64,000 nt of DNA from a virus, in IMG/VR virus record IMGVR_UViG_3300042898_006156, positions 49,560-113,559 of that record; one strand, written 5' to 3'. Each line of letters starts with the position of its first letter. Positions within the stretch are counted from its first letter, which is position 1. The translations under genes were made by a program, and so were the position numbers. Below the pieces are notes generated by a model. The model ran no database searches and was not told the origin of the DNA. It saw only the letters and a list, made by a program, of their open reading frames with translations. Positions 46,286-63,456 of the stretch are shown piece by piece.

Positions 46286-46966
46286 ATGGAATCAAAAAAA
46301 GAAACTGTAGATGCACTCATTGTTCCTGATGAAGGACCAAAGAAAGCATCTAAAATGTTCAGGGATTTGAAAGAAGGGGACAAACCATTAGCGCCTCTTC
46401 CCCCTGATAATATGAGTGATATATCTTATCCTCAATTTATGGAACCAAGATGCGCAATTTGTACTTCACCTTTCAGAGATTTGGTAGAACACGTATATCT
46501 TGATTCTGGACGTAAAAATCAATCAGTAATTAGATTCTTCCTACAGTATTTTGATGCACAGATGAACTGGATGCAGATTAATACTCACATGGAACAACAC
46601 TGTGATTTCAAAAAAATCTCAACTTCAGGTCTTAAAAATTATGAGCAAAGGGAAGAACTTATTGCTCCTTGGATTTTTCGTGAACATCATCTTGCCTTGA
46701 CTGCATTACTTGTAGAACTTGATGATGTAAGAGGAATTGACTGCTCTAAAAACAATGATATGAAGCTTAAAAGAGCAGCAATGGTAGAAAAGTTAATTTC
46801 TAAAATCTTACATCTTAAAGAAGTAAGAGATAATCAAGGTATTTATAATATCAACATTTTCGAAATTCTTGCTAAATTGCACGAAAAGATGGATTCTGAA
46901 AATGATAAAAGAATTATTAGAGAAGAAATTGTTGCTTTAAGAGAAAAGATCCAACAAGATAATTAA
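46286..46966 (+). CDS. Putative terminase small subunit
   Basis: Directly upstream of TerL; EPRCAIC...H...H zinc/HTH-like N-domain, helical C-terminus; ATG 46286 (track start 46265). Confidence 0.65.
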   Translation: MESKKETVDALIVPDEGPKKASKMFRDLKEGDKPLAPLPPDNMSDISYPQFMEPRCAICTSPFRDLVEHVYLDSGRKNQSVIRFFLQYFDAQMNWMQINTHMEQHCDFKKISTSGLKNYEQREELIAPWIFREHHLALTALLVELDDVRGIDCSKNNDMKLKRAAMVEKLISKILHLKEVRDNQGIYNINIFEILAKLHEKMDSENDKRIIREEIVALREKIQQDN

Positions 46967-49077
46967 TGAGAAAACAAACACAAGTTCCTAAATCTCCAAC
47001 AGAATTAAGAAACCAATTACTTCAACAAGCCAATACAGTAACAGAATTATTTAAGGGTACTGAATATGCAGATGATTTTGTTGACGAAATTGCTCCTGCC
47101 ACAAGATCAGAAGTCGCTCCTCCATTAAAGCCACCTAAAGACAGATTTAATCCTGATCAAATTGTAGATATTATTACATTTATCGAACATCCCTATTTTT
47201 GTAATCTAAGACCTTATCCTTGGCAAAAACTTATATTAAAGTGTTTTTATATGGGACAAGAAGGCAATACTAATCTTGTAATCAATGAATCTGATAATCA
47301 AGAAGATTGCAAGGGGTGTGTTTGGGATTATGTTCAAAAGAATGAGAATGAATTTTTAAAATCTCGTTCAGAAAGTAAGCAATTTAAAACAATTTTTAAT
47401 GTTGTTAATTCTCCTTGTTTGCAATGTAAGCGTCTTGATAATAATGTTAGAGAAGAAAGATATAAATATGCCAAAGACGAAGCTACAAACCCTGATGCAG
47501 AAAGACAAGTAGAAGTATTAGAAGCAAGACCAATTATTGATGGTTTTCAAAGTGAGTTTGATTTACTTTATTCTGAAGAATTTGATCCAAAATTGAGAAT
47601 GCAAGTTCAAGAGAAATGCACTAAAAGATATAAATTTGAAGAATTAGTTTTAGTACTTGGCAGACGTTCAGGAAAATCATTCCTAGTGTCTGCTATGGCT
47701 CTTTATGAATTATATAGATTGATTTCTATGGGACATCCTCAAGCAAGATATGGTTTGATGGAATTTGATGAAGTTGTTATTCTCAACGTTGCTCGTAATG
47801 AAGAACAGGCTAAAAAAGCAATCTTCTCAAAAATCAAGCAAACAGTTTTAGCTTCTCCATTTTTTGCACCTTATATTGGCAAAGATACAGAGCTTGAAAT
47901 GAGATTCTACACTGAACACGACCGGGAAGAGAATGTAAGAAGAAAAGAGCAAAATATCAATCTTTTTGCGGGTTCTTTAGTATTACGATGTGGTTCTAGT
48001 AATGCTTCAGGTCTCGTTGGTTTAACTTGTTGGACAATTATTATGGACGAAGTTGCAGCAATGGCAGGAGACAATCCTGAATCTGGTGTTGACTATGCTC
48101 TTTATGATGATTTGAAGCCATCTCTTGCTACATTTGGTAAAGACGGAAAGATGATGCTTCTTTCCAACCCCAAAGGTCCTCTTGGGTTACTTTATGATTT
48201 GCACGAGAATAGACAAGAAGATCCTACTACACTTGTTATGAGACTACCAACTTGGCTTACTAATCCAAACATTGATAAAGAATGGTTAGACGGTCAAAAG
48301 AAAAAAGATCCTCAAGAATTTCAAATGCAATATGGTGCAGAGTTTGGTGCATCATCATCTGACCCAATGTTCAATGTTGAAGATGTTGACAGAATGTTCT
48401 CTTCAATGTCTATGGTGAAAAGAAAAGAACAAGCAGAAGGACATTTTGAATATTTTTGTCATTTAGATCCTGCAAGAACTTCAGATTATTACGCCCTTGT
48501 TATTGCTCATACAGAAAATATGTATGGTCAAATTGGTCCTGATTTTCAGCCATTAAAAAGAGTTGTTATTGATCACATTCATTTTTGGAATCCAAGAACA
48601 AAAAATCAACCCGTTAAAGAAAAAGATGTTGAAGATTATGTAATTGAATTGCATAGAAAGTTTAAATTTAAACAAGTAAGCATTGATCAATGGAATTCTC
48701 AATCCTCTCTTATAACTTTACAATCACGAAGAATTCCTATCGTAGAACGTCAATTCAATAAAGAATATAAAGAGAAAATTTATACCGAACTTTCTCAACT
48801 AGTTCGAGATGACCGAATTGATATTTATGATTTATCTGGTGGTGAATATCGAGATTTAGATCACAGATTGATATCTTTGAATGAGATTCAAGAAGCTAAA
48901 ATTCAGTTTTTGTTTTTACAAAAGAAGTGGAAAGGTAAAAGATATTACATTGAAGCTCTATCAGGTTACAAAGACGATATTTGTGATGCTGTAGCTGCTG
49001 TTGCTTACGAATGTCTTACTTCAAAAATTATGATTAGATTACCAAGATCAAAAATGGTCAATCTAAATAGGCGATAA
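46966..49077 (+). CDS. terL: Terminase large subunit
   Basis: PYPWQ, VLGRRSGKS (Walker A), IIMDEVA (Walker B), LSNP, YGAEF, HLDPA (RNase H-like), DQWNS, KDDICDAVA. Confidence 0.93.
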   Translation: MRKQTQVPKSPTELRNQLLQQANTVTELFKGTEYADDFVDEIAPATRSEVAPPLKPPKDRFNPDQIVDIITFIEHPYFCNLRPYPWQKLILKCFYMGQEGNTNLVINESDNQEDCKGCVWDYVQKNENEFLKSRSESKQFKTIFNVVNSPCLQCKRLDNNVREERYKYAKDEATNPDAERQVEVLEARPIIDGFQSEFDLLYSEEFDPKLRMQVQEKCTKRYKFEELVLVLGRRSGKSFLVSAMALYELYRLISMGHPQARYGLMEFDEVVILNVARNEEQAKKAIFSKIKQTVLASPFFAPYIGKDTELEMRFYTEHDREENVRRKEQNINLFAGSLVLRCGSSNASGLVGLTCWTIIMDEVAAMAGDNPESGVDYALYDDLKPSLATFGKDGKMMLLSNPKGPLGLLYDLHENRQEDPTTLVMRLPTWLTNPNIDKEWLDGQKKKDPQEFQMQYGAEFGASSSDPMFNVEDVDRMFSSMSMVKRKEQAEGHFEYFCHLDPARTSDYYALVIAHTENMYGQIGPDFQPLKRVVIDHIHFWNPRTKNQPVKEKDVEDYVIELHRKFKFKQVSIDQWNSQSSLITLQSRRIPIVERQFNKEYKEKIYTELSQLVRDDRIDIYDLSGGEYRDLDHRLISLNEIQEAKIQFLFLQKKWKGKRYYIEALSGYKDDICDAVAAVAYECLTSKIMIRLPRSKMVNLNRR

Positions 49078-49102
49078 AGGTTATTTTTTTAAATAATAAG
49101 AA
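49076..49102 (+). promoter_or_regulatory. Putative late promoter AAAGG-N18-AGAA
   Basis: Exact motif 9 nt before ATG 49112. Confidence 0.65.
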
Positions 49103-49111
49103 CAAATCATT

Positions 49112-50104
49112 ATGTCTAACAATATCAGAACAGCTCAATTTGGTGGTGTAGGCGGCGGGGGAAATGGCTCTGCTTTTCAGCCTGGTGGTAGCCCTTTAGG
49201 TCGTGGTGGATCTAATAGGGGTGGTCACGAGATTAACATTTATGTTGATGAAGATGCTAGTTTTGATAAATTATTAAGAAGAACCCATATTGAGCCTGAT
49301 AATAGAGATGTAAATATTGAGTCGAGACTTACTCCTCAGCACAAACATTATGAAGAGATGATTCCATATGAATTAACTCCTGAAGAAAGAATGAGAGCTA
49401 AATTTAGAGCTCAACTTCATAATTATAAAAACTCACTTGAAAATGCTGCAAACAGTTTGATGAAAAATAGTCCAGCTTACATAAAAGAACATTATCATCC
49501 TAAAGCTGAACATATGATGACTATGGAGCAATCTTTAGAAGATCGTCATAAATATAATAAAGACTTCAAATATCCAAGAGAAGAATACAAAGATCCTGAT
49601 AAACCAGAAAGATTACATTTTGCTATTTCGGATCAAGCTATGAACCGTGTAGCTGAAGATTATGCAGTTAGAAGAAGAAACAGACTTACTGATGAATATC
49701 CAGAAGATAGGAATGAGTTTGATGAAAAACAATTTTCATATGCTCCTATTGGCAAAACACCAATCTTAATTCAAGGTGAAGATATTGATATTTATATGCA
49801 AGACTTGATGTCTGTTAATACTCCTGATCACGATGGATTTCAGGAATATGAGCTTAAGGATACTGTTTTAACCTATCCTGAGCCAGATGGTAAAGCAAAT
49901 GTACACGCTCCAAAAGATATTGCACCAGAACCAGAAGAAATGAAAGATGTTAATGTTTTTATGTCTTTAGAAGGTCAAATGCATCCAAACAAGAAATTCA
50001 CCACTTACCTTGATTACAACGATCAATCCTTAAAAGAAGACAAAGGTGTAGAGGAAGTTTATGATGGTTCCGCATTTTATGGAATTAGCGGTCATAGTTT
50101 GTAA
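49112..50104 (+). CDS. Head-region protein (RTAQ site, Gly-rich N-terminus)
   Basis: MSNNIRTAQFGGVGGGG; ExQL-like motifs. Confidence 0.75.
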   Translation: MSNNIRTAQFGGVGGGGNGSAFQPGGSPLGRGGSNRGGHEINIYVDEDASFDKLLRRTHIEPDNRDVNIESRLTPQHKHYEEMIPYELTPEERMRAKFRAQLHNYKNSLENAANSLMKNSPAYIKEHYHPKAEHMMTMEQSLEDRHKYNKDFKYPREEYKDPDKPERLHFAISDQAMNRVAEDYAVRRRNRLTDEYPEDRNEFDEKQFSYAPIGKTPILIQGEDIDIYMQDLMSVNTPDHDGFQEYELKDTVLTYPEPDGKANVHAPKDIAPEPEEMKDVNVFMSLEGQMHPNKKFTTYLDYNDQSLKEDKGVEEVYDGSAFYGISGHSL

Positions 50105-50138
50105 AGGTAAATAAAGAGAGAGTTAACAACAACAAATT

Positions 50139-50597
50139 ATGAAAGCAAATTCAATCCAAACAATAATCAAGCTTTGTTCAAGATTAGACAAAACAGGCCA
50201 CTATTCTAAAGCTGATCTTTTGTTTGAAAAAATTGCTCAATACTATCCCCAACAATCAGTAACTCAATCGCCAAATGTATCTTTAGTTCCCTATGAAGAC
50301 ATTGAAGAAGAAACCAAGCAAAATGATTTCTGGCGACAAAAAATTAATCCAAGAAAAATTCCAAAAGAATATTTTGACTTGGGTGGAGAAGCTGATGGAC
50401 AAAGTATCGAAGGTCAACTACATGGTCCTGACAATGTTCCAGGGCCAGCATATATTGATCCAGGTAATCCAGCATCAAGCCCCTCAATGGCAGTTCACAG
50501 TGGAGAAGATTTGTGCGATAAATTTTCCTGGGAAGAAACATATGAGAAAAATGTTGATGAAGGGAATGCTTGGAAAAACAGAATACCATACAGATAA
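50139..50597 (+). CDS. Head-region protein with helical leader
   Basis: MKANSIQTIIKLCSRLDKTGHYSKADLLFEKIAQ; AAAGG-N18-ACAA upstream at 50103-50129. Confidence 0.75.
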   Translation: MKANSIQTIIKLCSRLDKTGHYSKADLLFEKIAQYYPQQSVTQSPNVSLVPYEDIEEETKQNDFWRQKINPRKIPKEYFDLGGEADGQSIEGQLHGPDNVPGPAYIDPGNPASSPSMAVHSGEDLCDKFSWEETYEKNVDEGNAWKNRIPYR

Positions 50598-50608
50598 GGA
50601 ATTAAATT

Positions 50609-51100
50609 ATGCCTATACCAATTAAACCAGTTCATTCTTTAGACTTACATGCAGAATTATTTGACGGCCCATCAATGGAAGGCCTTGGACTTTCAGATAT
50701 TCAAATTCAACTTCTTGGTGTTTCACAAGCTCCAAAGAAAATTGAAGCTGCTAAATTGAGTGAAAGATACTTGAATATGCTCAAGTCAATTGATGCAAAT
50801 ACTGATGAACTAGTTACTGCAGCTAGCTATGTTGCTTTGCACAAGGACAGTACAATTTGTGGTGTTCCAACAGAAATTTCTGACAACGATCTTTTAGCTA
50901 TGAAAACAGCTGGATTACTTACTGGTTATGGAAGATCTGTAGAACTTACTGAAAGAGCAAGATTAGCATTACGTGATCATTATTTAAGCATAGATAATGT
51001 TAATGAGTTTAGAAAGCAAAGAACAAAAGATAGATTTGACCTTGATCAAGCAAGAAGTGTAAAAGCATCTTCAAGTAAATTTAAGAAAGTTGGTTCTTGA
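50609..51100 (+). CDS. Hypothetical protein with winged-helix-like C-terminal part
   Basis: DLLAMKTAGLLTGYGRSVELTERARLAL; ends at a TGA in frame with the DUF192 ORF. Confidence 0.7.
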   Translation: MPIPIKPVHSLDLHAELFDGPSMEGLGLSDIQIQLLGVSQAPKKIEAAKLSERYLNMLKSIDANTDELVTAASYVALHKDSTICGVPTEISDNDLLAMKTAGLLTGYGRSVELTERARLALRDHYLSIDNVNEFRKQRTKDRFDLDQARSVKASSSKFKKVGS

Positions 51101-51481
51101 CTCACTAGCAAAGAATTCCGTGATGAATTCGATGTTAGGTTTGTAGCAGACACAGATAAATTAAGAACTAAAGGCTTGATGAATGCAGAGCCTTTAGATG
51201 ATTATGAAGTAGTATTTTTTACTTTTGATTATCCAGATTGCTATTCATTTTGGAATAAAAACGTATCATTTGCACTTTCTTTAGCATTTTTAGATAAAAA
51301 TTATAAGATTGTGGATATTAAGGATATGGAAGCAGATGACCCTAAATCTGTATCTCCAGATTCGAACAATGTTGTATTTGTTGTAGAAGCAAAGAAAGGA
51401 TTGTTCAAAAAATTAGGCATCGGTGTTGGAGATAAATTGTTTTTGAAGGGCAAGAAAGTAATTTTCAGTAAAAAAACATAA
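51101..51481 (+). CDS. DUF192-family protein (conserved N-terminus lies upstream of the first start codon at 51176)
   Basis: VADTDKLRTKGLM...FWNKNVSFALSLAFLD...VVEAKKG...IGVGD. Confidence 0.8.
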   Translation, partial: LTSKEFRDEFDVRFVADTDKLRTKGLMNAEPLDDYEVVFFTFDYPDCYSFWNKNVSFALSLAFLDKNYKIVDIKDMEADDPKSVSPDSNNVVFVVEAKKGLFKKLGIGVGDKLFLKGKKVIFSKKT

Positions 51482-51492
51482 ATGGATGCATT

Positions 51493-51519
51493 AAAGGAAT
51501 TTGAGCATTAAATTTAGAA
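51493..51519 (+). promoter_or_regulatory. Putative late promoter AAAGG-N18-AGAA
   Basis: Exact motif upstream of 51560. Confidence 0.65.
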
Positions 51520-51559
51520 ATTTTCTTAATGTATTTTTTCTTGAGGAGAAAAATTAATT

Positions 51560-52642
51560 ATGGCAGATAGAATTTTCCCAAACAGATTTCAAGAAGATCC
51601 TCTTGATTCTGACTTGGTATTTCAAGGAATCGATTGGGATAACTTTAACCAAAGATTAGCTGAAGCAAAAGAGCCAAAAGAGAACAAGGGTCTCAAAGCT
51701 CTTATTGACGCTATTGGTGACGAAGAAATCGATAGATTGCAAGGCGAAGATCATGATGATCATGATGAAGCTTCAATGGACCATAAGTCTGGTTATATGA
51801 AAGAAGCTAAAAAAGGCCTTCCAGAAGGCTTGAAGAAGTGGATGGAAGAGAATGGCAAGGGCAAGAAGAAGTCTGAAGATTCTGAAGATGAAGATCATGA
51901 TGATAAAGATCATGAAGATCATGAAGATGAAGAAGAAAAAGCTGACAAAGGTCCTATGACTAGAAAAGGACCTAAGTCCAAGTCTGAAAAGAAAGCTTAT
52001 CATTTCAATCATGCATCACAATTGTCAGCTGAAGCAGTAGAAGCTGCAGTGGCTGCTGGTGATGAAGACCTTAAAGAAGCTATTCTTGCTGCTCGTCACG
52101 ACAGAAGAGTTAGATTAGCTGGCAAAATTGAGCGCCAAGTTCAAGCACAACAAGAAACCAATTTGAAGCTTGCACAAAGAAGAGCTTACAGAGAATCATT
52201 GGTTCAAAAAGTTGCTGCTAAGATGGATGATGAGAAAGAAGCAGCTATGGAAAAATCTTGCGAAAAATGTGGCGGAGTTTATGCAGGCAAGAAATGTGAA
52301 TGTGCTGACAAATCAAGTATGAAAGAAGCTAAAGCATTCTCATCAGCTGCTAGAAAAGCATTTGCTGCTAAAGCTCTTGCTGAAGGTTTTCCAATAGAAT
52401 ATATCAACGCAAGATTAGGTGAAACATCAGCGCCTACAGTTGATAAATTATCCGACATCAAGAACGTTCTTGCTTCTGACCTAAACACAAATGTAAAGGT
52501 TGCTGCAGCTTCTTCAATGATTAAAGTTGCAACTCTTTCAGACGCAGACTATTCCAGAATTGTCGATTACTGGAAAAATGAACTTGGTTATGGCGATCAA
52601 GAGTGGATTGATGCACTCTTTACCAAAAAATACGACAAGTAA
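51560..52642 (+). CDS. Charged head-region protein (scaffold/internal-protein-like)
   Basis: GAGGAG RBS; D/E/H/K-rich tracts, CEKC...CEC, many KxA sites. Confidence 0.75.
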   Translation: MADRIFPNRFQEDPLDSDLVFQGIDWDNFNQRLAEAKEPKENKGLKALIDAIGDEEIDRLQGEDHDDHDEASMDHKSGYMKEAKKGLPEGLKKWMEENGKGKKKSEDSEDEDHDDKDHEDHEDEEEKADKGPMTRKGPKSKSEKKAYHFNHASQLSAEAVEAAVAAGDEDLKEAILAARHDRRVRLAGKIERQVQAQQETNLKLAQRRAYRESLVQKVAAKMDDEKEAAMEKSCEKCGGVYAGKKCECADKSSMKEAKAFSSAARKAFAAKALAEGFPIEYINARLGETSAPTVDKLSDIKNVLASDLNTNVKVAAASSMIKVATLSDADYSRIVDYWKNELGYGDQEWIDALFTKKYDK

Positions 52643-52654
52643 CAATTACCATCC

Positions 52655-52698
52655 TCAAGAAAAATAGTCCCAGGGCGAAAGTCCTGGGACATTCTTGA
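52655..52698 (+). promoter_or_regulatory. Intergenic GNRA-tetraloop stem-loop without U-tract
   Basis: TCAAGAA...GTCCCAGGGC-GAAA-GTCCTGGGAC.TTCTTGA. Confidence 0.6.
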
Positions 52699-52723
52699 AA
52701 AGTAATATCAGGATATAATAAAC

Positions 52724-53539
52724 ATGAGCAGATTTAGAAAAGTATCAGAAATCGATAATATTCCAACATTTTTGGAAAAGAGATTTATTGGCGCTCAAGT
52801 TGAAGTTGAAGAAGATCCATACGCTGAGTTAAAGAGAAATTCAACTGCAAACAGACAATCAATTTCTAAACAAAATATTGGTTTCACAAAAGAAGCAAAC
52901 AATATTAACAAGTCTTGGGAAAAGATTCAAGGTGCATCAACTTATCAAGATTTAAGAGACACCACACTTGAAGATAGAATTCTTTCACAAGATTTTGGTG
53001 CTATTAGAAGAGCTGGATCACAGTTCGACGATGGAGAAACTGCAAGAACTACAACTAGTGGACTAAAAGCATTTTCGGCTGATGAATATATGAATGCTAT
53101 GCTTTCAAGATCAGCATCTATTTTCAACCCAGATATGATTTCAATTTCAGAAGAATTCTTGAATTCACAATCTTCGACCAGTGAACAATCTATTGTTGAA
53201 AATCAAAGATTGAGAGAAGCTAAGGCAACTCGTCATAAGGCTTGGGAAGAAAGCCAAATTAATAATTTAAGACAATCTTCTGTAGTTTCTTCAAGAGCAC
53301 ATTCTATCTTGAGAACATCTTCAGATAATGAATTCAATTCAACATTTGGAATGATTGATCCATCTGCTCTGGACAATCGTGAATCAATGAGAATTGCTAA
53401 TCAAGAGAAGAACAGAACTGAAAGAATGGCAATCAAGAAAAACATTCAAAGTGATATGAGTAACAAAGCTCAATCAAGAGCAAAAACTGTTAATGAAATT
53501 TATAATAGCATTGACGTTAATTTTGATGATATTGACTAA
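52724..53539 (+). CDS. Hypothetical head-region protein
   Basis: 271-aa ORF, MSRFRKVSE. Confidence 0.75.
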   Translation: MSRFRKVSEIDNIPTFLEKRFIGAQVEVEEDPYAELKRNSTANRQSISKQNIGFTKEANNINKSWEKIQGASTYQDLRDTTLEDRILSQDFGAIRRAGSQFDDGETARTTTSGLKAFSADEYMNAMLSRSASIFNPDMISISEEFLNSQSSTSEQSIVENQRLREAKATRHKAWEESQINNLRQSSVVSSRAHSILRTSSDNEFNSTFGMIDPSALDNRESMRIANQEKNRTERMAIKKNIQSDMSNKAQSRAKTVNEIYNSIDVNFDDID

Positions 53540-54537
53540 TGAATAAACTGTCTCAAACCGCTCCACCTTTAGCATCAAATCCGGCAAATGGAATTAATAA
53601 TATTCCGTTAAATGGTGAAAGTGTCGAAGGTGTGACAAAAGATGAAATGAGACAGTTAATGAATAAGGTCAAATCTGCTAATGATAATTTCAGTGAACTT
53701 TCAAATGAAGTTACTGTCATAGCAGACAAAGTGCAAGATAAAAATTTAAAACATCAATTAGATAAGTTATCAAAAGCACTACTTATGTCAAATAGTAATA
53801 GAACAAGAACAAAAGATCCAATTACTCAAGAATTGGATCCAAGCTATTCTGATATAGCAAATAAGATTGAACAAACTTATTTATTCGAGGCTAAGAACGT
53901 GTACAACAATTCCAAAACAGCACAGGTCAAAAAGAAAAAGAAAACTAGAGGCAATCCATTCCGTGTTTTAATGGGTAAAGTGGGTAAATTGCTTGATCAC
54001 GGTGTTGAAAAAAGCGACATAGTTAGATACATATCAAAACTTAAGTATTGGAATAAAGAAACAATTGAACGTGCTGTCGATATTGTCAAGGAATACAACA
54101 AAAAACTTGAGAAAGGCAAAGATAAAGACGATAAGCCAAAAAAATCAGAAAAGTCAGAAAAAACTGCAGATACTGTTGATCTTGATAAATTAGTTAGAGA
54201 AAAAGAAGACGTTGAGAAAAAAACTAAAGATGTCGAAGAAACAATAGAGTTGATTAATGACACTGAAGAAAAAGGCAATAAAAATGCTTCAGTTAAAATT
54301 GCTTCTTTAAATTATGATGCAAAACCTAATTTTGAAAAGAGATCTACACCTGAGTTAATTATGAGAGCTTGTTTTCTTATGGATTTACAAGATTATTCTA
54401 AAACAACAAAACAAGGCGATTTCAAAGATGCTGCTGATAAGAAAGGCGTAAGTGAAGAATTAAAGCAACTCAAAGCAGCTCTCAAAGATAGAGGTTTTGA
54501 TAAAGAAGAATTATCGAATTTAGGATTGGGTAAATAA
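53539..54537 (+). CDS. Hypothetical basic head-region protein
   Basis: 332 aa; KTAQVKKKKKTRGNPFRVLMGKVGKLLDHG. Confidence 0.75.
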   Translation: MNKLSQTAPPLASNPANGINNIPLNGESVEGVTKDEMRQLMNKVKSANDNFSELSNEVTVIADKVQDKNLKHQLDKLSKALLMSNSNRTRTKDPITQELDPSYSDIANKIEQTYLFEAKNVYNNSKTAQVKKKKKTRGNPFRVLMGKVGKLLDHGVEKSDIVRYISKLKYWNKETIERAVDIVKEYNKKLEKGKDKDDKPKKSEKSEKTADTVDLDKLVREKEDVEKKTKDVEETIELINDTEEKGNKNASVKIASLNYDAKPNFEKRSTPELIMRACFLMDLQDYSKTTKQGDFKDAADKKGVSEELKQLKAALKDRGFDKEELSNLGLGK

Positions 54538-54539
54538 TT

Positions 54540-56201
54540 ATGGACAAGGGATATAAAATCAAAGCTACATACGAGACTCACGATCCTAAAAAAATTCAAG
54601 ACATTATGGATAAAAAACCATTAGTCGGCGGAACTGGATTACTTAGTATGCTTCAAGACACAATTGCTGGACTTGGAGATGGTGATTCTACGCCAATGTC
54701 TTCTCCTTTTCACGTTTTAGATATGAATGATTTTGGTGATGATCCAGTAATTTCAGCTTTTAAAAATATGGGTGGACCAGAAAATATCGTAAAGATTGTC
54801 GCCCTTCCTGGAAAAGAAGCACATCATCATTTGCATCACGCTTTTAATAAATTGAATAATATAAAATTAGCAGAAGAAAGAAATACTCTTCGTTATGCAT
54901 ATATGGCTTTGCAAAACTTTTTAAACAAGAATAATGAAGCAGCCAGATTAGAAAGAGTAGCATACAAATCAACAGATAAATCTGCTGGATATTGGCAAAT
55001 CGAAGCCATCAATTCTTTGGATAAACTCAAGAAATTTGCATCCACTTCCTTGAGAATTTCTAAACTTGAAAGTGCTAGAAATGTTGTTTTATCAGGAAAC
55101 AAATTACAAACTACTAAAGTATCAAACTATTTACATAATTGGTATTCAGAAATCACACCAAAAGAAAATAGAAGAGTAGCTTACACAACATTATCAACAC
55201 AAGCAAATGAGCCTTATTTACTTTGCCCTAAAGGTAAATTTCAAGGATATAAATCTCCAATCCCTATGGAAATTTCAAAATGCCGTGAGAACTGTATTGA
55301 CTCCAGAGTTGATAAAGAAGGACACGTTACTTGTGCATATCAAGATTGGCTCAAAGTAGCTTTCCAATCACATGATGAAGTTATGGCAAGATTAGATGTT
55401 CATAAACATCCAGATAATGAAGCTAATGCCCTTGAGCTTAAAGAAGGCGAAAGATCCAAGAAACTTACTGAAGGTGAAATTGGATTCGAAGCTAGATTTG
55501 AAAATTCAGATAGAGGCGCTAATAAAATCAGAGGCAAGCAAAATGTCGATGATTCTAGAGAAAAACAATTATCAGATGCCAAACAATCAAGCTATGGTCA
55601 TCAACAAGGCGATAAGCCAGTTATGCGCCCAAAACAAGCTCAATCTGACACTAATAAGACAATCGATTCACAATTACCAAGAAAAGATCAAAAAGGCACA
55701 GATTACCTTGAAATGCTTTTGAGGAAATTGAATGATAAAGAATCTGTAACAGATGAAGTTAGAGAAAATCAACTTGATTCTGATGGTCTTTACAATCATC
55801 GTGGTGAGATGGAAGAATCTTATGCTGATCAATTAAATGTGAAGGGTAAAGATCCAATCAATTACAGAGATGAATTGAATAAGAATAAAAATGAGCCAAA
55901 AGATTCTATTATTCATCAATTAGATAAAAATATTACTGCTTCTAAAAAAGAAATGAATCAAGAACAAATTCTCAATGAAACCAGAAAGAAAAATGTTGTT
56001 GATGTATCTAGAGACAAGCAATTAGAAGACAGAAGACAAAATACAAAAATTACCAAAAATATTGAAGCGCTTTTAGATGCTGAAGATGAAGACAGTATAG
56101 GTCATCATTTTTCAGAAGAAGATCTCAAAAGATTTGCTGATGAACTTGGTTTAGACTACATTATGGAATCTAAAAGAGAAGAATACGACGATGTGGTATA
56201 A
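54540..56201 (+). CDS. Head-region protein with Cys cluster and ExQL repeats
   Basis: LCPKG...KCRENCID...TCAY; repeated SREKQL/VRENQL/SRDKQL motifs. Confidence 0.75.
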   Translation: MDKGYKIKATYETHDPKKIQDIMDKKPLVGGTGLLSMLQDTIAGLGDGDSTPMSSPFHVLDMNDFGDDPVISAFKNMGGPENIVKIVALPGKEAHHHLHHAFNKLNNIKLAEERNTLRYAYMALQNFLNKNNEAARLERVAYKSTDKSAGYWQIEAINSLDKLKKFASTSLRISKLESARNVVLSGNKLQTTKVSNYLHNWYSEITPKENRRVAYTTLSTQANEPYLLCPKGKFQGYKSPIPMEISKCRENCIDSRVDKEGHVTCAYQDWLKVAFQSHDEVMARLDVHKHPDNEANALELKEGERSKKLTEGEIGFEARFENSDRGANKIRGKQNVDDSREKQLSDAKQSSYGHQQGDKPVMRPKQAQSDTNKTIDSQLPRKDQKGTDYLEMLLRKLNDKESVTDEVRENQLDSDGLYNHRGEMEESYADQLNVKGKDPINYRDELNKNKNEPKDSIIHQLDKNITASKKEMNQEQILNETRKKNVVDVSRDKQLEDRRQNTKITKNIEALLDAEDEDSIGHHFSEEDLKRFADELGLDYIMESKREEYDDVV

Positions 56202-56724
56202 GCAAGTTTTGGCCCAATTTGGTGGTGGTGTTAATTTTTCAGAAGAAGAAAAAGTTGATTCTCAAAACAATTCTGAAATTTACAACATTAGAGATGTAGA
56301 CAACGAACCTGCTGGATTATATGATGAATTGTCAGGCATTCTTGAAAAAATGGGCAAAACACTTGATGAATATTACAGTATGAATCAAATTCAACAAAAA
56401 GAAATTTGGGATTTACTTGTTGATCGTCCTCACAGAATGACCATGGATAACACTGGAAATTTTATCAAGTCTCCACAATCCGCATCGAATGAAGCACGTA
56501 GACATTCTCCGTTTCACGAGAATCCAGAAGAAACAACCTTAGAAGAACAACTTAGAGGATCTCAACAAGAAAATAATAATAGAGATCCACAAAGTATGGC
56601 TTCTACAGAAAAAGGTAATAGTTTTCAACATTTCAAGAATGGAGAAGGATATTATCAAGCACTAAAAGGCAAGCAAGATCCTATCCTTTTTGGAAACAAA
56701 CCTTCTAATCAAACTTGGTATTAA
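56191..56724 (+). CDS. Head-region protein with MWY leader
   Basis: MWYKQVLAQFGGG; TTLEEQL. Confidence 0.75.
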   Translation: MWYKQVLAQFGGGVNFSEEEKVDSQNNSEIYNIRDVDNEPAGLYDELSGILEKMGKTLDEYYSMNQIQQKEIWDLLVDRPHRMTMDNTGNFIKSPQSASNEARRHSPFHENPEETTLEEQLRGSQQENNNRDPQSMASTEKGNSFQHFKNGEGYYQALKGKQDPILFGNKPSNQTWY

Positions 56725-56757
56725 GTTATATATTTTTAGAACGGTATAATATATGTT

Positions 56758-59121
56758 ATGGCAAATAGAACATCTTTGGCTTCTGCTATCAGAACAGCAG
56801 CAACACAAGTATCAGGAGCATCAACAACTTCATCAACTGTAGATAGAAATTATGCAAGCAGTCGAATTGGTTTAGGTTTAGGACCAGGCGTAACAAGAAC
56901 TGCTAGTTTAAATACAGTTACGACAGCTCCTAATTTCTATTCGCCATTTTTAACTCCATCATCATTCCAAATTCCAAATGCTCGTCGTGAAGTTTATCTT
57001 TGGGCTAACTGGTGGAGAAATAACGAACCAAAAATTGCTGCAGCTGTCAATTTTTACACCAACTATCCATTCTCTGGTTGGAAATTAGAATGTTCTTCTT
57101 CTTACGTAAAAGACTATTTTGAAAAGTTAGTAGAATCACTAAACTTTCAAAAATGGCTTCCTGAAATTTCCAAAACATATCACTTACTTGGTGATTCATT
57201 TGTTTTGCTTTCTCTTGATTGTCCACATTGTCAAGGGTCAAACTGGGACGATGATAAAAATCAAGAATGTGAACACGATGGTGCAACTTGGAAATCAATA
57301 TCAATTCTTAATCCAGATTCTGTAATTAAAAGCCCAGGCATGATTGATCAGCCTGGAAGTTATGCTTACAGACCATCTGCAGAAGAAACTAGAATTGTAA
57401 ATGAAAGACATCCTAAAGAAGTCTATGACAAGATTCCTGATGATATCAAAAAGATGATTATCCAGGGAAATCCTATCAAACTTAATCCGATCTCTATTCA
57501 TCATTTTAAATACGGATCAAACCCTTGGGAAGATTATGGAATTTCTATGATCAGACCATTGTTTCCAATTTTAACTTACAAAGATAAACTACGTCAAGCT
57601 CAATATATGATTGCTGAGCGTCTTATTTTACCAATCAAGGTTGTAAAAATTGGTAGTGATACAAGACCAGCATCACAAGAAGATATTGACAATGTTCAAG
57701 ATGAATTGGCATCTATTGCAAATGATCCAAACTTAACTCTTGTAACTCACCACAATTTTGATCTTGAATGGTATGGAGCTACAGGAAAAATTCATCCTCT
57801 CACTGGTGAATTTGAATTAATTGAGCAAGAAATTTTAGATGGTGTTATGCTCAACAAAGCTCTCTTGAATGGTGAGGGTCCAACTTATGGCAATGCTCAA
57901 GTTGGTCTTCTTGCAATGGCTCAAAGATTAGAGACTTTTAGAAGAGAAGTTGCACACTGGATTGAGCAAAATGTTTTTATGCCAGTTGCTAAATGGAATG
58001 GCTTTGTAATTGAGGGTGAAAGAGGTCAAGACGAATTAGTTTATCCTAAAATTAAATTTGACGATCTTCAATTACGAGATGATACTGGCAAGCTTCAAAT
58101 GCTTGTCACTGCAAACCAAAATGGTGTTATATCAAATGTTTCTCTTATAGAAGCTTTTGGTTTAGATTCTGATCAAGAAATTGAAAGATTAAGGTTTGAA
58201 CAAGGTGCAAACTTTATGAATGATCAAAATTTTGGTACTCCTAATGTTTCATTAAGCTTTCAAAGTGGTGGCGTTACTGGACAAGGCTTTGGGGCAGCAC
58301 CTACAGATATGTTAGGTGGGATGGGAGCGCCTCCACCTGCTGATTTAGCTGTTGGCGGAGCTGCTCCACCACCAGCAGCCGCTCCTCCAGCTCCAGGTGC
58401 TGCTCCTGCTCCAACAGCATCAACTATGACTAAAAATTACAAGCTAGCCAGTGCAACGATAAATGAAATTTATGATGAAAGAATTAATGCAAAAAATTCA
58501 AGTGTAAGAACTGCTAGTAAAAGAATTAAGTCTGCTGCCCATGAATATTTCTTGATGTCTTTGACTCCAGTGACTGGTAGAGGTTCTCTTGGTCCTCTAC
58601 CAAGTGAATATGATGGATTATTTGGTTCAATACAGATTCCACTTTGTGGTGGAGATAATTCTCATCCATTAAATAATTATGCTCTGGAAGAAATATATCA
58701 ATTTGCCAATAATGATAATGAAGCTATCAAAAAATATGCAAAAAAGAAAGTAGACGTTGCACAACAGCCAAAAATGTTTACTGGCCTAGAAAAGAAATTA
58801 TATGGTTTGACAATGTCTTTAAATATGCCATTTCCTCTATATGCTCAATATTCTGCTGGTCCAACTATGGATTATCAATTAGACGCTGCAATTCCTAACT
58901 TAAAAATTGGTATAGAAGCAGATGGAGAAATTTGGCATAACAATCCAGATAAAATTGCAAAAGATAAACGTAGAGATTCTGAACTAGCTGCAAATGGATG
59001 GATTATTGTAAGATTTACTGATAAAGAAATAAACGATCATCCACAAGATTGTTTGAATGTTCTTATAAAAGCAATAAAGAAACGAACAGGTATGGGTGAA
59101 GGGAATTCGGAATATCTATAA
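56758..59121 (+). CDS. Portal protein fused to a C-terminal DUF559/Vsr-like endonuclease domain
   Basis: Position before the head protease; portal-like core (YHLLGDSF, ILNPD, HFKYGSNPWEDYGISMI, PIKVVKIG, PKIKFDDL); C-terminal YQLDAAIPNLKIGIEADGEIWH...DKRRDSELAANGWIIVRF. Confidence 0.8.
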   Translation: MANRTSLASAIRTAATQVSGASTTSSTVDRNYASSRIGLGLGPGVTRTASLNTVTTAPNFYSPFLTPSSFQIPNARREVYLWANWWRNNEPKIAAAVNFYTNYPFSGWKLECSSSYVKDYFEKLVESLNFQKWLPEISKTYHLLGDSFVLLSLDCPHCQGSNWDDDKNQECEHDGATWKSISILNPDSVIKSPGMIDQPGSYAYRPSAEETRIVNERHPKEVYDKIPDDIKKMIIQGNPIKLNPISIHHFKYGSNPWEDYGISMIRPLFPILTYKDKLRQAQYMIAERLILPIKVVKIGSDTRPASQEDIDNVQDELASIANDPNLTLVTHHNFDLEWYGATGKIHPLTGEFELIEQEILDGVMLNKALLNGEGPTYGNAQVGLLAMAQRLETFRREVAHWIEQNVFMPVAKWNGFVIEGERGQDELVYPKIKFDDLQLRDDTGKLQMLVTANQNGVISNVSLIEAFGLDSDQEIERLRFEQGANFMNDQNFGTPNVSLSFQSGGVTGQGFGAAPTDMLGGMGAPPPADLAVGGAAPPPAAAPPAPGAAPAPTASTMTKNYKLASATINEIYDERINAKNSSVRTASKRIKSAAHEYFLMSLTPVTGRGSLGPLPSEYDGLFGSIQIPLCGGDNSHPLNNYALEEIYQFANNDNEAIKKYAKKKVDVAQQPKMFTGLEKKLYGLTMSLNMPFPLYAQYSAGPTMDYQLDAAIPNLKIGIEADGEIWHNNPDKIAKDKRRDSELAANGWIIVRFTDKEINDHPQDCLNVLIKAIKKRTGMGEGNSEYL

Positions 59122-59147
59122 TTGAAGAATAGTTTGTCACTGTACAA

Positions 59148-59173
59148 TAAACCCGTCGATTTCGACGGGTTTA
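59148..59173 (+). terminator. Hairpin/terminator after portal
   Basis: TAAACCCGTCGA-tt-TCGACGGGTTTA. Confidence 0.7.
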
Positions 59174-59179
59174 AATTTT

Positions 59180-59206
59180 ACAGGTTTTAATATGTTAAAA
59201 ATAGAA
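59180..59206 (+). promoter_or_regulatory. Putative late promoter ACAGG-N18-AGAA
   Basis: Immediately after the terminator, upstream of the protease gene. Confidence 0.65.
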
Positions 59207-59246
59207 CAAATCCTATTGATAACTTTATTTTTTGAGGATTGAATAT

Positions 59247-62200
59247 ATGTACAAGGTTGCAAAAGGAGGAGCTATTACTATTAATAGTTTTCTCAACGAA
59301 AATGACCGAAATATAGCTAGAGATTATATTATTAAGACTGCTTCATCTAATATGAGAGAAGCTGCTAAAATTGGTCTTCAATCTCTATATGCTGATCCAA
59401 AAGAAGTCCTAGAAAAATACAAAGATTTTGACATCGTTAAAGAAATGCAAGCTCGTAAAGGTGCAAAACTTTTATGGGTTAGAGCTAGAGCAATCGATGC
59501 AGATGTTGTAAATGCTAATGGAGACTTATTTTCTAAAGAAGAACTCCTAAAAGAAGCTGAAATTAAAGGCCAAAAAATTCCAGCTTATAAGACTTTTGAA
59601 GGTGTTCCAATTTACACCAATCATAAGAATGACGACATCGAACAGGCTAAAGGTATGGTTGTTTACGCAGAATGGGACGAAAAAGAAAATTGCGTATACT
59701 GCACATTCTTCGTAGATGAAGAAGCTTATCCTGATATTGCAAGAAATATTCGTACTGGCGTAATTCACGATGTTTCAATGGGTGCAAGTGTTGAATGGGG
59801 TGTCTGTTCAATTTGTGGTAATAAAGCATACACTGAAAGAGATTATTGTGAACATCTTAAGAAGTATAAAGGCAAGATTTATCCTGAATCTGGCAAAAAA
59901 GCATATGAAAAGAACTATGGTGTTAAGTTTATTGAATTAAGCTGTGTAGGCGATGGTGCTTTTGAATCTTGTGAAATTCAAGAAATTTATGATGTCGATG
60001 ATGTTTTAGACGCTGCAATGAATTTGGAAAAGAAAGCAAATGAACTTTCTGCAAATATTGTTTTAGCGTTGCAAGGATCTCCACTAGAATCTTCTATAAG
60101 ACCAGAATACGAAAATTGTTTAAGAGTAGCAAATTCTACAGCTAAAACAGCAGTAAGGTTAGCACAACAAGCTGGCACTCTTGTTGGTGGTCCTTTATTA
60201 GCAGGAGCTGGAGCAAATCAAAATTCTACTGTTCAAGCAGTATTGACAGCGCTTGGTATAGATCCTGCTTCTGGATTGAACATTCTTGACTTAATCAATT
60301 TATCACTAAATTTCTTGGAAGTTGCAGTGATGAATATGTTTGCAAGAAAAGATAACGTTGATTTAGGGCATGTTGGCAAAATCACCAAATCAATGGCCGA
60401 ACTTCAATCTACCATGCAGGACATGATTGACGACGGAGTTGATGTTGGGAGTGGACAAAGACCACAGCAAATCAATCAACCTCAAAATATGCAACAGGGG
60501 CAAGCTCCACAAGCTTCTCCTATGAATGCAAATGTTGGTCTGGCTAATTATGCACCAACTGAATCTGTAGGTAAGGTAATGGACCTTACCTATTCTGGAG
60601 ATCAAGGCAGTCAAGTTGGAGGCGGTGTTGCTTTAGCCTCTAGCAATCACAATTTGGTCTGGGCTTCAAGAGACGGCAAAAGAGAAGTTTTTGCTAGTAC
60701 TCAAAAAAGTTCATCTTCCAATAGAATTTTGAATTTTTCACAAAGCATATTAAATTTAAAAGAAAATTTAAACAACGATGCTCAAATTCAAAAAAGTATT
60801 GATAATGTCATTAGAGTTGCTAATGAGAGAAGCAAAAATATAAAAACAAATACGCCTTTTGTGGCGGGGAGCAGAAATCAAATGGATCACTTTGCAAAGA
60901 TTGCATCAGAGCAAAGAAAAAAACTTGCTGCTGCAGTTACAATCGATTTTAAAGTCGAGGATAATGCAGGTAATAGAGTTGTTCTTTCTACTGACGGGTC
61001 AATCACGGGTTACACAAATGGAAAAAGAACTACTTGGGAACCTATCCTAAATGAAAACCAACTTGGTTTAATGGAAAATGGACAAGGAACAAGAGTTGCT
61101 GCAGAATTGCTCAAGGACTACTCACATTTTATCAAGACTGCTTTGCTTGATGTCAAAGAAAGACTTGATGACAGAGAGAGCCAACTCAATGAAGTCAGAG
61201 GCGGTGAGTCATATGATAATTTATATGAAGGTGTTAAATCAAAGAACACTGGCACTGTAAATGAAGTTCGTGAGAAGCAATTAGAGCCTAAACAAACAGG
61301 TGCAAGCCAAGATTGTGTAAGAGAAATTCTTCTTGGAGATGCTGGACTTTATGGTAGAAGAGTAAAGGATGAAGAAGTTCGTAAGTCCTTAACTCAATTA
61401 ATTGACGAAGTTACTCACGGTGTTCCAACTGAAATTTTAGAAAAGCAATTGTCAAATCATCGCACAGAAGGATCTGCTAGTGCAAATGAAATTATGACAG
61501 CAACCATTACTGCATTAGGTAAGGCTGTTATTTCTTCACTAGAAACTCCTAAAACAATTCTTCGTGTTGCGCAAACATTATCTGAAGAGCCAATGCTTCC
61601 AGAAATGATTGGAACTGCTGCTGCTGGAACAGAAATGGAAGCAGATAAAGCAGAAAAGGTAGATTTCTTTGGTGGAGATGCTTCACCAGAAAATTCAGTT
61701 TCCGCTGTTATTAAGCAATTAGGTGCTGCTGTAACTTCTGAAATCACAGCTAGAGATCTTGCTGATGCACTTTCAGTTGCAGTTGAAGAAGGTGAAATGA
61801 CTAAAGAAGGCGTTTCAAGAATCGCTGAACTTCTTATGGGTCAAGCATCTGTTCCTGGAGAAGGTTTGGATGTTGAAACTGCACCTTCAAAAAATGAAGA
61901 ACTCAAGTCTGCACTTATGTCTGCTGTAGATGCTGATGTAGATCTTATCTCCAAAGATGATCTCAAGTCTGCTATTTCTGCTATGGCAATGTCCTCTAAA
62001 GAAACTGGCACAACTCCTGATGAAGTAGTTGATTCTGTTGAAGCAATGCCAGAAAAACAATTAATGGCTGCTATCGATAGAGCAAAGACAGCTACAGCAA
62101 CTGACGGAAGATTAAGATCAAGAGCTAGAAGAGAATTCTGGGGTGTCAAAACTGCATCAACTAAAAGTGTTTCTGAAAATGTTGTTGGTTGGTTAGCAGA

Positions 62201-63383
62201 TTATTCAACAAATTTTGGAATTAGCACAAGAAGAATTGCAAAGGCTGCAAAGAGACTTTGTGAAGAATTTGAAGTTGCACAGAAACTTGTTGCCAAGGCT
62301 GTAGTTGCTTCTGAAAGAACAGCTGGTATGACTGTAACTCAAAGCAAGTCTGATTGTATTAGATTTATGTGTAGAGCTGAAGATCTAAATGGCACACAAC
62401 CAAGCGATAGTAATTTTGATGAGTCTTTCAAGCAAAAAGCTATTGAAGTTCTTCAAGGACATGGATTCCAAGTTGATCCAGGCACATTCTCATTCACAGA
62501 CTTGATTGTTTCTGAAAATGGTGATGTAACAGCAACAGTTTCTACATCTTCCTCAAAAACTTTCAAAACTGACGAAGAATCTGTTGAAATGAATGTTGAA
62601 GATAACGCAGAAATGCCAGTTATAATGACAGAGGGTGCAAGATTAGCTAGAAAGTCTAGAAGAGATGATATTTTAGCGAAATACGCACAAGCCATGCCAG
62701 GAATGGGAGCTCCAGCTCCTCAAGGTCCTGCAGCTGGTCCAGTTGATCCAGGTTTGGGTGGTGGTGCTCCTGCTGGTGGCGATTTAGGTATTTCTTCACT
62801 TACTGGTGGCGCTGACATGAATGAGTCTGCAGATATGGATGCAGTAACAGAGCCTGGTGAAAAGAAGCCTTGGGGTTCTGTTTGTCCAGTTTGTGGTGCT
62901 GATGATGTAAATATTTCAGAATCAAATGCAGACTGCCAAAGCTGTGGAACTACATACAAAATTCTTCAACAAATTGAATTAATTTCAATGGGTGATAAGG
63001 GTAAAACCTCACCTGAAGAAGATCCAATGGGTCTTGGTCCTGATACAGGTTTGGGTGCTGCAACTGCTCCTGCTGAATTACCAGCTCCTGCACCAGCTGC
63101 TCCAGGAATGGGGCCAGTTGCTTCTGATATCAGAACAATGGTTAGATTGTCCGCTACAGTTGATTCTGATGTCTATTTGAAGACTGCATTACCATCGTTT
63201 GATAGAACTGCAGAATCAATGCTTCCTGTCGGTATGGTTTGCCCATCTTGTGGTGATAGAGAAGCACATAAAGTCAAGAATAATACATTCTGTTACAAGT
63301 GTGGAAATTATTCAAGAACAACTGTACAAGCATCAAAGAAAGATCCATCAAAGCTTGATGTATCCATTACTTGGATAGATTAG
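59247..63383 (+). CDS. Prohead protease (HK97/assemblin-like fold) fused to a long scaffold-like region and C-terminal zinc ribbons
   Basis: NANGDLF, PIYTNH (His), HDVSMG (Ser), CSICG...CEH, FIELSCV; CPVC...CQSC and CPSC...CYKC at the C-terminus; ATG 59247 with GAGG RBS (track start 59232). Confidence 0.75.
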   Translation: MYKVAKGGAITINSFLNENDRNIARDYIIKTASSNMREAAKIGLQSLYADPKEVLEKYKDFDIVKEMQARKGAKLLWVRARAIDADVVNANGDLFSKEELLKEAEIKGQKIPAYKTFEGVPIYTNHKNDDIEQAKGMVVYAEWDEKENCVYCTFFVDEEAYPDIARNIRTGVIHDVSMGASVEWGVCSICGNKAYTERDYCEHLKKYKGKIYPESGKKAYEKNYGVKFIELSCVGDGAFESCEIQEIYDVDDVLDAAMNLEKKANELSANIVLALQGSPLESSIRPEYENCLRVANSTAKTAVRLAQQAGTLVGGPLLAGAGANQNSTVQAVLTALGIDPASGLNILDLINLSLNFLEVAVMNMFARKDNVDLGHVGKITKSMAELQSTMQDMIDDGVDVGSGQRPQQINQPQNMQQGQAPQASPMNANVGLANYAPTESVGKVMDLTYSGDQGSQVGGGVALASSNHNLVWASRDGKREVFASTQKSSSSNRILNFSQSILNLKENLNNDAQIQKSIDNVIRVANERSKNIKTNTPFVAGSRNQMDHFAKIASEQRKKLAAAVTIDFKVEDNAGNRVVLSTDGSITGYTNGKRTTWEPILNENQLGLMENGQGTRVAAELLKDYSHFIKTALLDVKERLDDRESQLNEVRGGESYDNLYEGVKSKNTGTVNEVREKQLEPKQTGASQDCVREILLGDAGLYGRRVKDEEVRKSLTQLIDEVTHGVPTEILEKQLSNHRTEGSASANEIMTATITALGKAVISSLETPKTILRVAQTLSEEPMLPEMIGTAAAGTEMEADKAEKVDFFGGDASPENSVSAVIKQLGAAVTSEITARDLADALSVAVEEGEMTKEGVSRIAELLMGQASVPGEGLDVETAPSKNEELKSALMSAVDADVDLISKDDLKSAISAMAMSSKETGTTPDEVVDSVEAMPEKQLMAAIDRAKTATATDGRLRSRARREFWGVKTASTKSVSENVVGWLADYSTNFGISTRRIAKAAKRLCEEFEVAQKLVAKAVVASERTAGMTVTQSKSDCIRFMCRAEDLNGTQPSDSNFDESFKQKAIEVLQGHGFQVDPGTFSFTDLIVSENGDVTATVSTSSSKTFKTDEESVEMNVEDNAEMPVIMTEGARLARKSRRDDILAKYAQAMPGMGAPAPQGPAAGPVDPGLGGGAPAGGDLGISSLTGGADMNESADMDAVTEPGEKKPWGSVCPVCGADDVNISESNADCQSCGTTYKILQQIELISMGDKGKTSPEEDPMGLGPDTGLGAATAPAELPAPAPAAPGMGPVASDIRTMVRLSATVDSDVYLKTALPSFDRTAESMLPVGMVCPSCGDREAHKVKNNTFCYKCGNYSRTTVQASKKDPSKLDVSITWID

Positions 63384-63387
63384 TACA

Positions 63388-63422
63388 CAAAATAGTGGGG
63401 GAATAATTCCCCCACTATTTTG
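63388..63422 (+). terminator. Rho-independent terminator
   Basis: CAAAATAGTGGGGGAA-taa-TTCCCCCACTATTTTG. Confidence 0.85.
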
Positions 63423-63429
63423 CTTGAAA

Positions 63430-63456
63430 AAAGGTGTAAAAACAAGTTATCTAGAA
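63430..63456 (+). promoter_or_regulatory. Putative late promoter AAAGG-N18-AGAA
   Basis: Immediately after the terminator, upstream of ORF 63538. Confidence 0.65.

Follow-up and report, generated by a model that had tools for sequence, protein, structure and literature searches.

A conserved AGG-N18-AGAA motif resembling SigH promoters and a SigH-like sigma factor in an uncultured jumbo phage family

Analysis of a viral contig from IMG/VR (record IMGVR_UViG_3300042898_006156) identified a two-box intergenic element, AGG-N18-AGAA, which very probably represents a promoter class of the SigH type, and a gene for a SigH-like sigma factor that may be its reader. The analyzed stretch, hereafter the window, comprises 64,000 nucleotides (nt), bases 49560–113559 of the 113,559-bp contig, and contains the sigma gene as well as the promoters that it presumably reads. 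A probability of roughly 0.68 was given to the joint claim that the sites are SigH-type promoters, that the phage SigH-like sigma reads them, and that the genes behind them form a morphogenesis regulon used after replication. We infer promoter activity, start sites, the pairing of sigma and motif, and the late or middle timing from the sequence.

The contig has a G + C content of 33% and a CheckV completeness of 32%. Its largest relatives measure 300–379 kb, and it is thus considered a fragment of a jumbo phage. Four near-complete relatives were compared: G001 (378,848 bp), G002 (358,269 bp), G003 (315,852 bp), and G004 (300,000 of 300,536 bp). Megablast returned no match between the contig and cultured phages, and the best tblastn matches of the terminase, to actinophages and cyanophages, reached only 24–27% identity, indicating no cultured relative. 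Parts of the region are contained, as assembled contigs, in four freshwater and riverine metatranscriptomes.

Enrichment, spacing and conservation of the motif

Across the whole window, the bare pattern occurs at chance level (10 matches, five of them inside open reading frames (ORFs), versus 11.1 expected). When intergenic matches in the 113-kb contig were counted at spacings of 14 to 23 nt, the numbers were 1, 1, 0, 0, 6, 0, 1, 2, 1, and 2, respectively, with the six at 18 nt. Dinucleotide shuffles of the same intergenic DNA averaged 0.68 matches and peaked at 4, and none of 500 reached six. The near-complete relatives G001, G002, G003, and G004 carried 21, 17, 7, and 8 intergenic sites at 18 nt, respectively, compared with 0–5 at other spacings and shuffle means of 1.1–2.5, and their non-intergenic matches showed no peak at 18 nt. 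A further 146 related loci yielded 93 distinct intergenic matches at this spacing versus 0–18 at the others. The enrichment of the motif is entirely intergenic and entirely spacing-specific.

A motif-blind dyad scan was also performed, covering all pairs of 4-mers at spacings of 8–24 nt in the intergenic DNA of the five genomes. Among non-palindromic dyads shared by four or more of these genomes, AGGA-N17-AGAA, AAGG-N18-AGAA, and AGGT-N17-AGAA ranked highest (z 12–14). A gene start on the same strand lies within 200 nt of 56 of the 59 exact intergenic sites in these genomes. No site was found before replication genes, and matches inside ORFs showed no excess at 18 nt; the initial annotation had named an equal frequency in those places as contrary to its proposal, and no such equal frequency was observed. 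The five exact sites proposed there all exist, but their coordinates had included two extra upstream bases; the corrected positions, and those of a sixth site outside the window, are listed in Table 1.

To examine conservation, distinct orthologous upstream regions were collected using the N-terminus of each downstream protein as the anchor, with the counts given in Table 1. Upstream of five neighboring control genes, the exact motif occurred in 0–1 regions each. In the aligned regions, both boxes and the 18-nt distance are constant and the spacer and flanks drift. Among the relatives that conserve the motif, identity across the 120 N-terminal residues of the downstream protein falls to 36–60%, and one of these genomes has a G + C content of 41%. 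G002 (59% protein identity) and G003 (45%) both retain the site before gene 333–2867, its spacer being unrelated there, and the motif at 59182 is kept even in a relative whose sigma is 56% identical. Sigma and motif are co-conserved to 45–56% sigma identity and across a shift in G + C content from 33% to 41%. At the sequence level, this pattern amounts to phylogenetic footprinting of a two-box element.

Single-base variants of the downstream box were enriched at the 18-nt spacing, namely TGAA, GGAA (9 vs. 2.5), and AGTA (10 vs. 3.1); the counts for CGAA and ACAA were 5 vs. 2.0 and 2 vs. 7, respectively. The three one-mismatch variants reported earlier in the window (GGAA, AGTA, and ACAA) are all present. 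The GGAA variant at 22523–22547 is plausible as a weaker promoter; it recurs in locus L232 (43% protein identity), and the homologous place in G002 reads AGG-N19-AGAA. The AGTA variant at 38888–38912 is a plausible promoter as well, and AGTA replaces AGAA before some orthologues of g49112. The related-loci search found no relatives of the gene behind this variant (37253–38878), so conservation cannot test it. The motif also stands at the head of gene islands on the minus strand that are embedded in the plus-strand replication block.

Membership in the class is not supported for the ACAA variant at 50105, since the relatives read AAAGG-N21-AAGAA-N6-ATG at this place, a spacing of 21 nt, and ACAA is not enriched. 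Upstream of g50139, relatives such as L022 and L019 carry the same boxes 3 nt wider apart, with AGAA 6 nt from the ATG, and in the window copy (50105–50138) the AAGAA box has decayed to ACAA. Another related arrangement, AAGG-N18-AAAATAA, was observed at 41629–41697 on the minus strand before a 905-amino-acid gene and is kept in G002 (~61590) with a different spacer; this could be either a weak form of the AGG-N18-AGAA promoter or another kind of signal.

Similarity to SigH promoters and the SigH-like sigma factor

Published SigH promoters of Sporomusa, B. subtilis, and C. difficile combine a -35 AGGA and a -10 GAAT with a spacer of 17–18 nt (PMC12456013), and the consensus derived from DBTBS is RNAGGAWWW / RNNGAATWW (PMC8510167). 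The phage consensus extends to R-[not G]-AGG-W ... AGAA. Among the 59 sites in five genomes, where AGG itself was fixed by the search, comparison with RNAGGAWWW showed A or G at position -2 in 50, G at position -1 in two, and A or T as the next base in 48. When the -10 box is compared with RNNGAATWW, GAA is kept and usually preceded by A, with T and G tolerated; it is followed by A in 26 sites, T in 17, C in 9, and G in 7, so the phage sites do not need the final T. The mapped C. difficile SigH promoters also include many with AGAAA or AGAAG.

The spacing also agrees, as AGG-N18-AGAA is equivalent to AGGN-N18-GAA and lies within the published 17–18 nt, with the phage peak at one spacing only. 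In the C. difficile table, approximately 19 rows read literally AGG-N17/18-AGAA, about half of the mapped SigH promoters, and approximately 31 rows read AGG-N17/18-NGAA. The variants there include TGAA and GGAA, and the commonest, CGAA, is weakly raised in the phages. Based on this match to mapped promoters, the phage motif corresponds to a SigH promoter core at the longer spacing in which the final T is dispensable, and its assignment to a SigH-type promoter class is held with high confidence.

More broadly, SigH promoters of Bacillota (B. subtilis, B. thuringiensis, C. difficile, and Sporomusa) share with the phage sites the -35 AGG(A/T) after R-N, the -10 (A)GAA, and the distance, given that AGGA-N17/18-GAAT equals AGG-N18/19-GAA. 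The phage system differs from them in its rigid spacing of 18 rather than 17–18 nt, in the dispensable T, and in a candidate factor that is virus-encoded. Its presumptive targets are morphogenesis genes instead of transition-phase or sporulation genes, and a quarter of its sites are placed for leaderless mRNAs.

The product of the sigma gene at 35931–36638 contains Pfam domains Sigma70_r2 and r4_2, corresponding to regions 2 and 4. When searched against NCBIfam, its top five matches were all SigH models (94–109 bits; E values, 1e-26 to 3e-31) covering residues 15–220 of 235, and the next match was a generic sigma70-ECF model at 51 bits. The protein thus shares with the Bacillota SigH sigma full-length similarity and the recognition helix of region 4.2, in which K192, D195, N196, A197, L198, R200, I201, and K204 (K..DNAL.RI..K) are invariant with two cellular SigH proteins. 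Several positions in region 2 are also invariant among these proteins.

The SigH-like gene is conserved in five large relatives with 45–91% identity. It lies 22 nt past dnaX with no room for a promoter of its own, and the factor is therefore presumably made with the replication genes. Genomes of the family carry two to four sigma genes, three to four in the complete relatives, and the 35931–36638 type is the only SigH-like sigma among them, the others being ECF-, FliA-, or SigB/F/G-like. The earlier identification of a sigH homologue at 35949 was in this sense borne out. The three phage sigma factors assumed at the same time were reduced to two detectable genes in the window, with further ones elsewhere in the complete relatives.

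Table 1. Motif sites, sigma genes, terminators and module genes. Coordinates are those of the window unless marked; aa, amino acids. The last column gives the exact motif in distinct orthologous upstream regions.
Feature	Coordinates	Strand	Context	Conservation
Exact AGG-N18-AGAA	49078–49102	+	Directly 3' of terminase stop codon; 9 nt before ATG 49112	g49112: 36/50 (relaxed, 41/50); always 9 nt from ATG
Exact AGG-N18-AGAA	51495–51519	+	Before g51560; leader of ~30 nt with GAGGAG Shine-Dalgarno sequence	g51560: 29/30; diverged spacer
Exact AGG-N18-AGAA	59182–59206	+	10 nt past terminator hairpin; before 1383-aa protein, ATG 59247	g59232: 41/43
Exact AGG-N18-AGAA	63432–63456	+	Past terminator hairpin; before ~560-aa acidic helical protein	g63538: 37/39 (relaxed, 39/39)
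Exact AGG-N18-AGAA	2900–2924	-	Divergent intergenic region, toward 844-aa gene 333–2867 (-)	333–2867 (-): 3/3
Exact AGG-N18-AGAA, outside window	contig 18692–18716	-		
Variant AGG-N18-GGAA	22523–22547	-	Before minus-strand island 21833–22489 + 21180–21830	
Variant AGG-N18-AGTA	38888–38912	-	541-aa minus-strand gene begins (ATG 38878) 9 nt further on; leaderless geometry	
Variant ACAA	50105–50129	+	Before g50139; not supported as class member	
SigH-like sigma, 235 aa	35931–36638	+	Likely true start ATG 35949, as in most homologues	
Sigma-2	44798–45364	+	ECF/SigBFG-like region 4; 8 nt after holA-like gene	
Terminator hairpin	59149–59172	+	After portal gene, just upstream of 59182 promoter; -17.6 kcal/mol, z -5.9, U-rich tail	
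Terminator hairpin	63388–63422	+	After gene 59247–63383, upstream of 63432 promoter; -25.3 kcal/mol, z -8.2, U-rich tail	
Terminase large subunit	46966–49077	+	Head module	
Portal	56758–59121	+	Head module	
1383-aa protein, N-terminus resembling a head-maturation protease	59247–63383	+	Head module	
Primase, dnaX, dnaN, holA-like gene, PurA/PurZ-like gene			Replication genes in window	

Genes behind the motif, leader lengths and neighboring features

The sites had been described as preceding head genes. This holds at the level of the module, which contains the terminase, the portal, and the protease-domain protein, but most of the proteins directly downstream have no assigned family. When approximately 40 proteins were searched against PHROGs and Pfam, the majority had no family, and no major capsid gene was identified. 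In relatives, the motif also precedes a LysM protein and a large virion-type protein with immunoglobulin (Ig) domains.

Gene g51560 (51560–52642) encodes an all-alpha, acidic, scaffold-like protein of 360 amino acids, and a profile search of it against PDB sequences gave no match. The real start of the gene behind the 63432 promoter is ATG 63538, and this gene continues beyond the end of the window. The products of g51560 and g63538, both directly behind the motif, have a similar layout: acidic, helical, and partly disordered, with paired CxxC. AlphaFold2 models of g51560 and of the g63538 orthologue (L087:7353–9029) were of low confidence (pLDDT, the predicted local distance difference test score, of 62 and 56, respectively) and all-alpha with disorder, and these models tentatively suggest that both proteins are scaffold-like.

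The initial annotation also stated that two sites directly follow terminators, and strong hairpins with U-rich tails were indeed found before the sites at 59182 and 63432; both stems show compensatory changes in relatives. The motif regions gave no significant fold (z 0.0 and -1.7) and no Rfam match. Right behind g51560, a strong conserved hairpin without a U-tract was observed at 52667–52690 (-25.4 kcal/mol), and relatives show compensatory changes in it. It could serve as an attenuator or as a 3' end that stabilizes the RNA.

The distance from AGAA to the start codon falls into two groups. In the short group (13 of 56 sites), it is 8–12 nt, with 9 nt in six cases and 10 nt in five; these sites precede unrelated genes in all five genomes and have no Shine-Dalgarno sequence. 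The long group is broad (21–81 nt) and often has one. The rows of the C. difficile SigH table, each of which marks a mapped start according to its legend, mostly end 9–11 nt after AGAA. If this geometry holds in the phages, the short-distance class would start transcription on the A of the ATG, and leaderless mRNAs are predicted at about a quarter of the sites. A start approximately 10–11 nt after AGAA is thereby predicted in place of the 6–9 nt proposed earlier. Leaderless geometry is found in the window before g49112, whose start ATG has no Shine-Dalgarno sequence and for which the site at 49078 is predicted to start transcription at or beside the A of ATG 49112, and, via the AGTA variant, before the minus-strand gene at 38878.

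Other candidate promoters were observed outside this class. At contig positions 700–2100 (G000:C1, outside the window), early small genes lie behind TTGCAA-N17-TAATAT/TATATT, boxes that resemble sigma-A promoters for leaderless mRNAs. As these boxes sit exactly 6 nt before the ATGs, leaderless expression seems usual for this phage. A second family-wide intergenic dyad, TTGA(CAA)-N17-GGTA (22 vs. 2.1), was found at contig positions 291–2039 and at 41663–41687 of the window, and in several of its copies the -10 position is covered by a palindrome. This dyad probably marks a class of sigma-A promoters that are early and regulated.

Further features of the window were noted. The portal has a C-terminal DUF559/MTES_1575 (Vsr-like) nuclease-type domain at residues ~704–773, and a DUF192 domain protein (58.8 bits) is encoded on the plus strand at 51176–51481, within the head module. 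A short adenylosuccinate-synthase-like gene of 331 amino acids (41698–42693, plus strand) heads the operon of dnaN, the holA-like gene, and sigma-2. Its product matched PurA models with 190–283 bits and the PurZ model with 123 bits, under the 300-bit cutoff of the latter, and could be a PurZ-type enzyme for 2-aminoadenine DNA. The plus-strand gene 26150–26536, labeled SpoVS-like, had no Pfam match at E ≤ 0.01, g54540 had no match in the ESM Atlas, and an Rfam search of the window returned no family. A Pfam search of the four large relatives gave no domain of RNA polymerase beta or beta'.

Reading of the promoters, alternatives and phage precedents

It is known that phage-encoded sigmas replace the host primary sigma on the host core RNA polymerase for later gene classes (PMC13401047; PMC9429907). 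By analogy, the SigH-like sigma (35931/35949–36638), produced together with the replication genes, would direct the host core enzyme to start approximately 10–11 nt downstream of AGAA. These promoters would drive the head-morphogenesis module downstream of the terminase and the opposite-strand gene islands within the replication block and, in relatives, the LysM and Ig-domain proteins. Where an ATG lacking a Shine-Dalgarno sequence follows the -10 box after 9–10 nt (49078 and the 38888 variant), a leaderless transcript would result; elsewhere, a leader of 20–80 nt with a Shine-Dalgarno sequence would be made.

Several observations weigh against this proposal. The SigH models gave the phage sigma 94–109 bits, far under the SigH equivalog cutoffs of 208–414 (TIGR02859 / PRK08295 tested), and two cellular controls (L227 and L230) passed one cutoff of 208 bits with 253 and 210 bits, respectively. 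The phage protein, at 109 versus 208 bits or more, is therefore SigH-like and not a SigH orthologue. The SigH-like sigma and sigma-2 are equally conserved, and both are encoded in replication operons; because the family has two to four sigmas, two of them in this equal position, the motif was assigned to its sigma by similarity only. Most of the downstream genes have no known function, so that their late or structural character is documented in part. An RNA-library contig (51425–51717) runs across the 51495 motif rather than starting after it and thus gives no support for a start behind this site. The summed depth of the contigs from the four metatranscriptome runs, which indicates neither transcription starts nor expression levels, was highest at 51401–53200 and 63401–64000 and approximately zero over the terminase.

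The host's own SigH could also be the reader, in which case the phage SigH-like gene would be an auxiliary that manipulates the stationary-phase or sporulation programs of the host. The motif cannot be told apart from the promoter cores of cellular SigH, host SigH drives the int promoter of staphylococcal prophages (PMC2869324), and lytic growth can proceed without sporulation-like phage sigmas (PMC9429907). However, the phage sigma is conserved in every large relative along with the motif and is encoded inside the replication operon. Virion gene expression would become dependent on host physiology if it relied on a host sigma of the stationary phase. The habitat is freshwater or river water, and there is no sign of a Bacillota host. 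Taken together, we consider a host reader quite improbable.

It is very unlikely that the promoters are read by another phage sigma, either sigma-2 or a third or fourth sigma outside the fragment. Sigma-2 matches the SigH-like sigma in conservation and is encoded closer to the head module, complete relatives have three or four sigmas available, and the dyad scan gave no further phage-specific promoter motif, common to the family, that the others might read. Nevertheless, those sigmas resemble ECF, FliA/WhiG, SigK, or SigB/F/G; SigH models gave 29–32 bits for one and were absent for the rest. The consensus promoters of these classes are unlike AGG/GAA. Moreover, the extra sigmas are not universal, as two were found in G004 (84% complete).

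Least credible is the idea that the motif is the site of a DNA-binding regulator or an RNA-level signal for processing, stability, or translation. One site is crossed by the RNA-library contig, and both AGG and AGAA resemble pieces of an extended Shine-Dalgarno sequence. However, two dissimilar boxes held rigidly 18 nt apart, with an AT-rich spacer that is free to vary, are what characterizes a sigma promoter, as opposed to an RNA fold or the site of a dimeric repressor. Neither structure nor covariation was detected, several sites follow terminators or occupy divergent intergenic regions, the boxes are 30–100 nt from most start codons, and the match to mapped SigH promoters is exact.

The host may lie outside Bacillota, and the family would then bring its own complete set of SigH-type sigma and promoters into a lineage lacking SigH, with about a quarter of its transcripts leaderless by design. 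Hints in this direction are the freshwater and riverine metatranscriptomes, the many genes without a Shine-Dalgarno sequence, and a 94%-identical sigma in a Bacteroidetes metagenome-assembled genome (MAG), yet we regard the full scenario as unlikely. The sigma in question is on a 6.9-kb contig (L226; VEQB01000117.1) binned in a 'Bacteroidetes bacterium' MAG, and this binning is a weak and possibly artefactual host hint. If the scenario were true, a Bacillota-type alternative sigma would work on a foreign core RNA polymerase.

The preferred reading, in which the phage SigH-like sigma recognizes the motif, can be compared with known phage systems. SPO1 (gp28 for middle genes, gp34 for late genes) and T4 (gp55) re-aim the host polymerase by the same strategy, with the sigma gene expressed in an earlier class. 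Their sigmas are highly diverged and phage-specific, with promoter consensus sequences of their own, whereas here both sigma and promoters are recognizably of the cellular SigH class. Co-factors of the gp33 or gp27 kind were not identified in the present phage. The int promoter of S. aureus prophages is likewise a phage promoter of the SigH type (PMC2869324), but there a host sigma serves a single lysogeny gene, whereas a lytic-type jumbo phage here has its own SigH-like factor and 7–21 sites per large genome. Bacillus phage SP10 g120 and SPO1 gp2.21 are also phage-borne homologues of Bacillota alternative sigmas (PMC9429907). In contrast to the present case, where a conserved promoter set precedes core morphogenesis genes, they are SigF/G/K-like and dispensable and have no demonstrated phage regulon. 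That a phage sigma redirects host RNA polymerase is a textbook principle; the unusual part is the SigH-type factor with its promoter grammar.

For this uncultured family of 300–380 kb freshwater phages, whose proteins are mostly unannotatable, the motif offers a readable regulatory map. The genes behind AGG-N18-AGAA would form one co-regulated class, probably late and virion-related, and membership in it may aid the assignment of functions to the opposite-strand "cargo" genes. The fixed AGAA-N9/10-ATG layout predicts programmed leaderless late mRNAs. These findings suggest that a cellular alternative-sigma class, SigH, can be adopted whole, factor and promoter grammar together, as a core viral switch rather than as a host-manipulating accessory.

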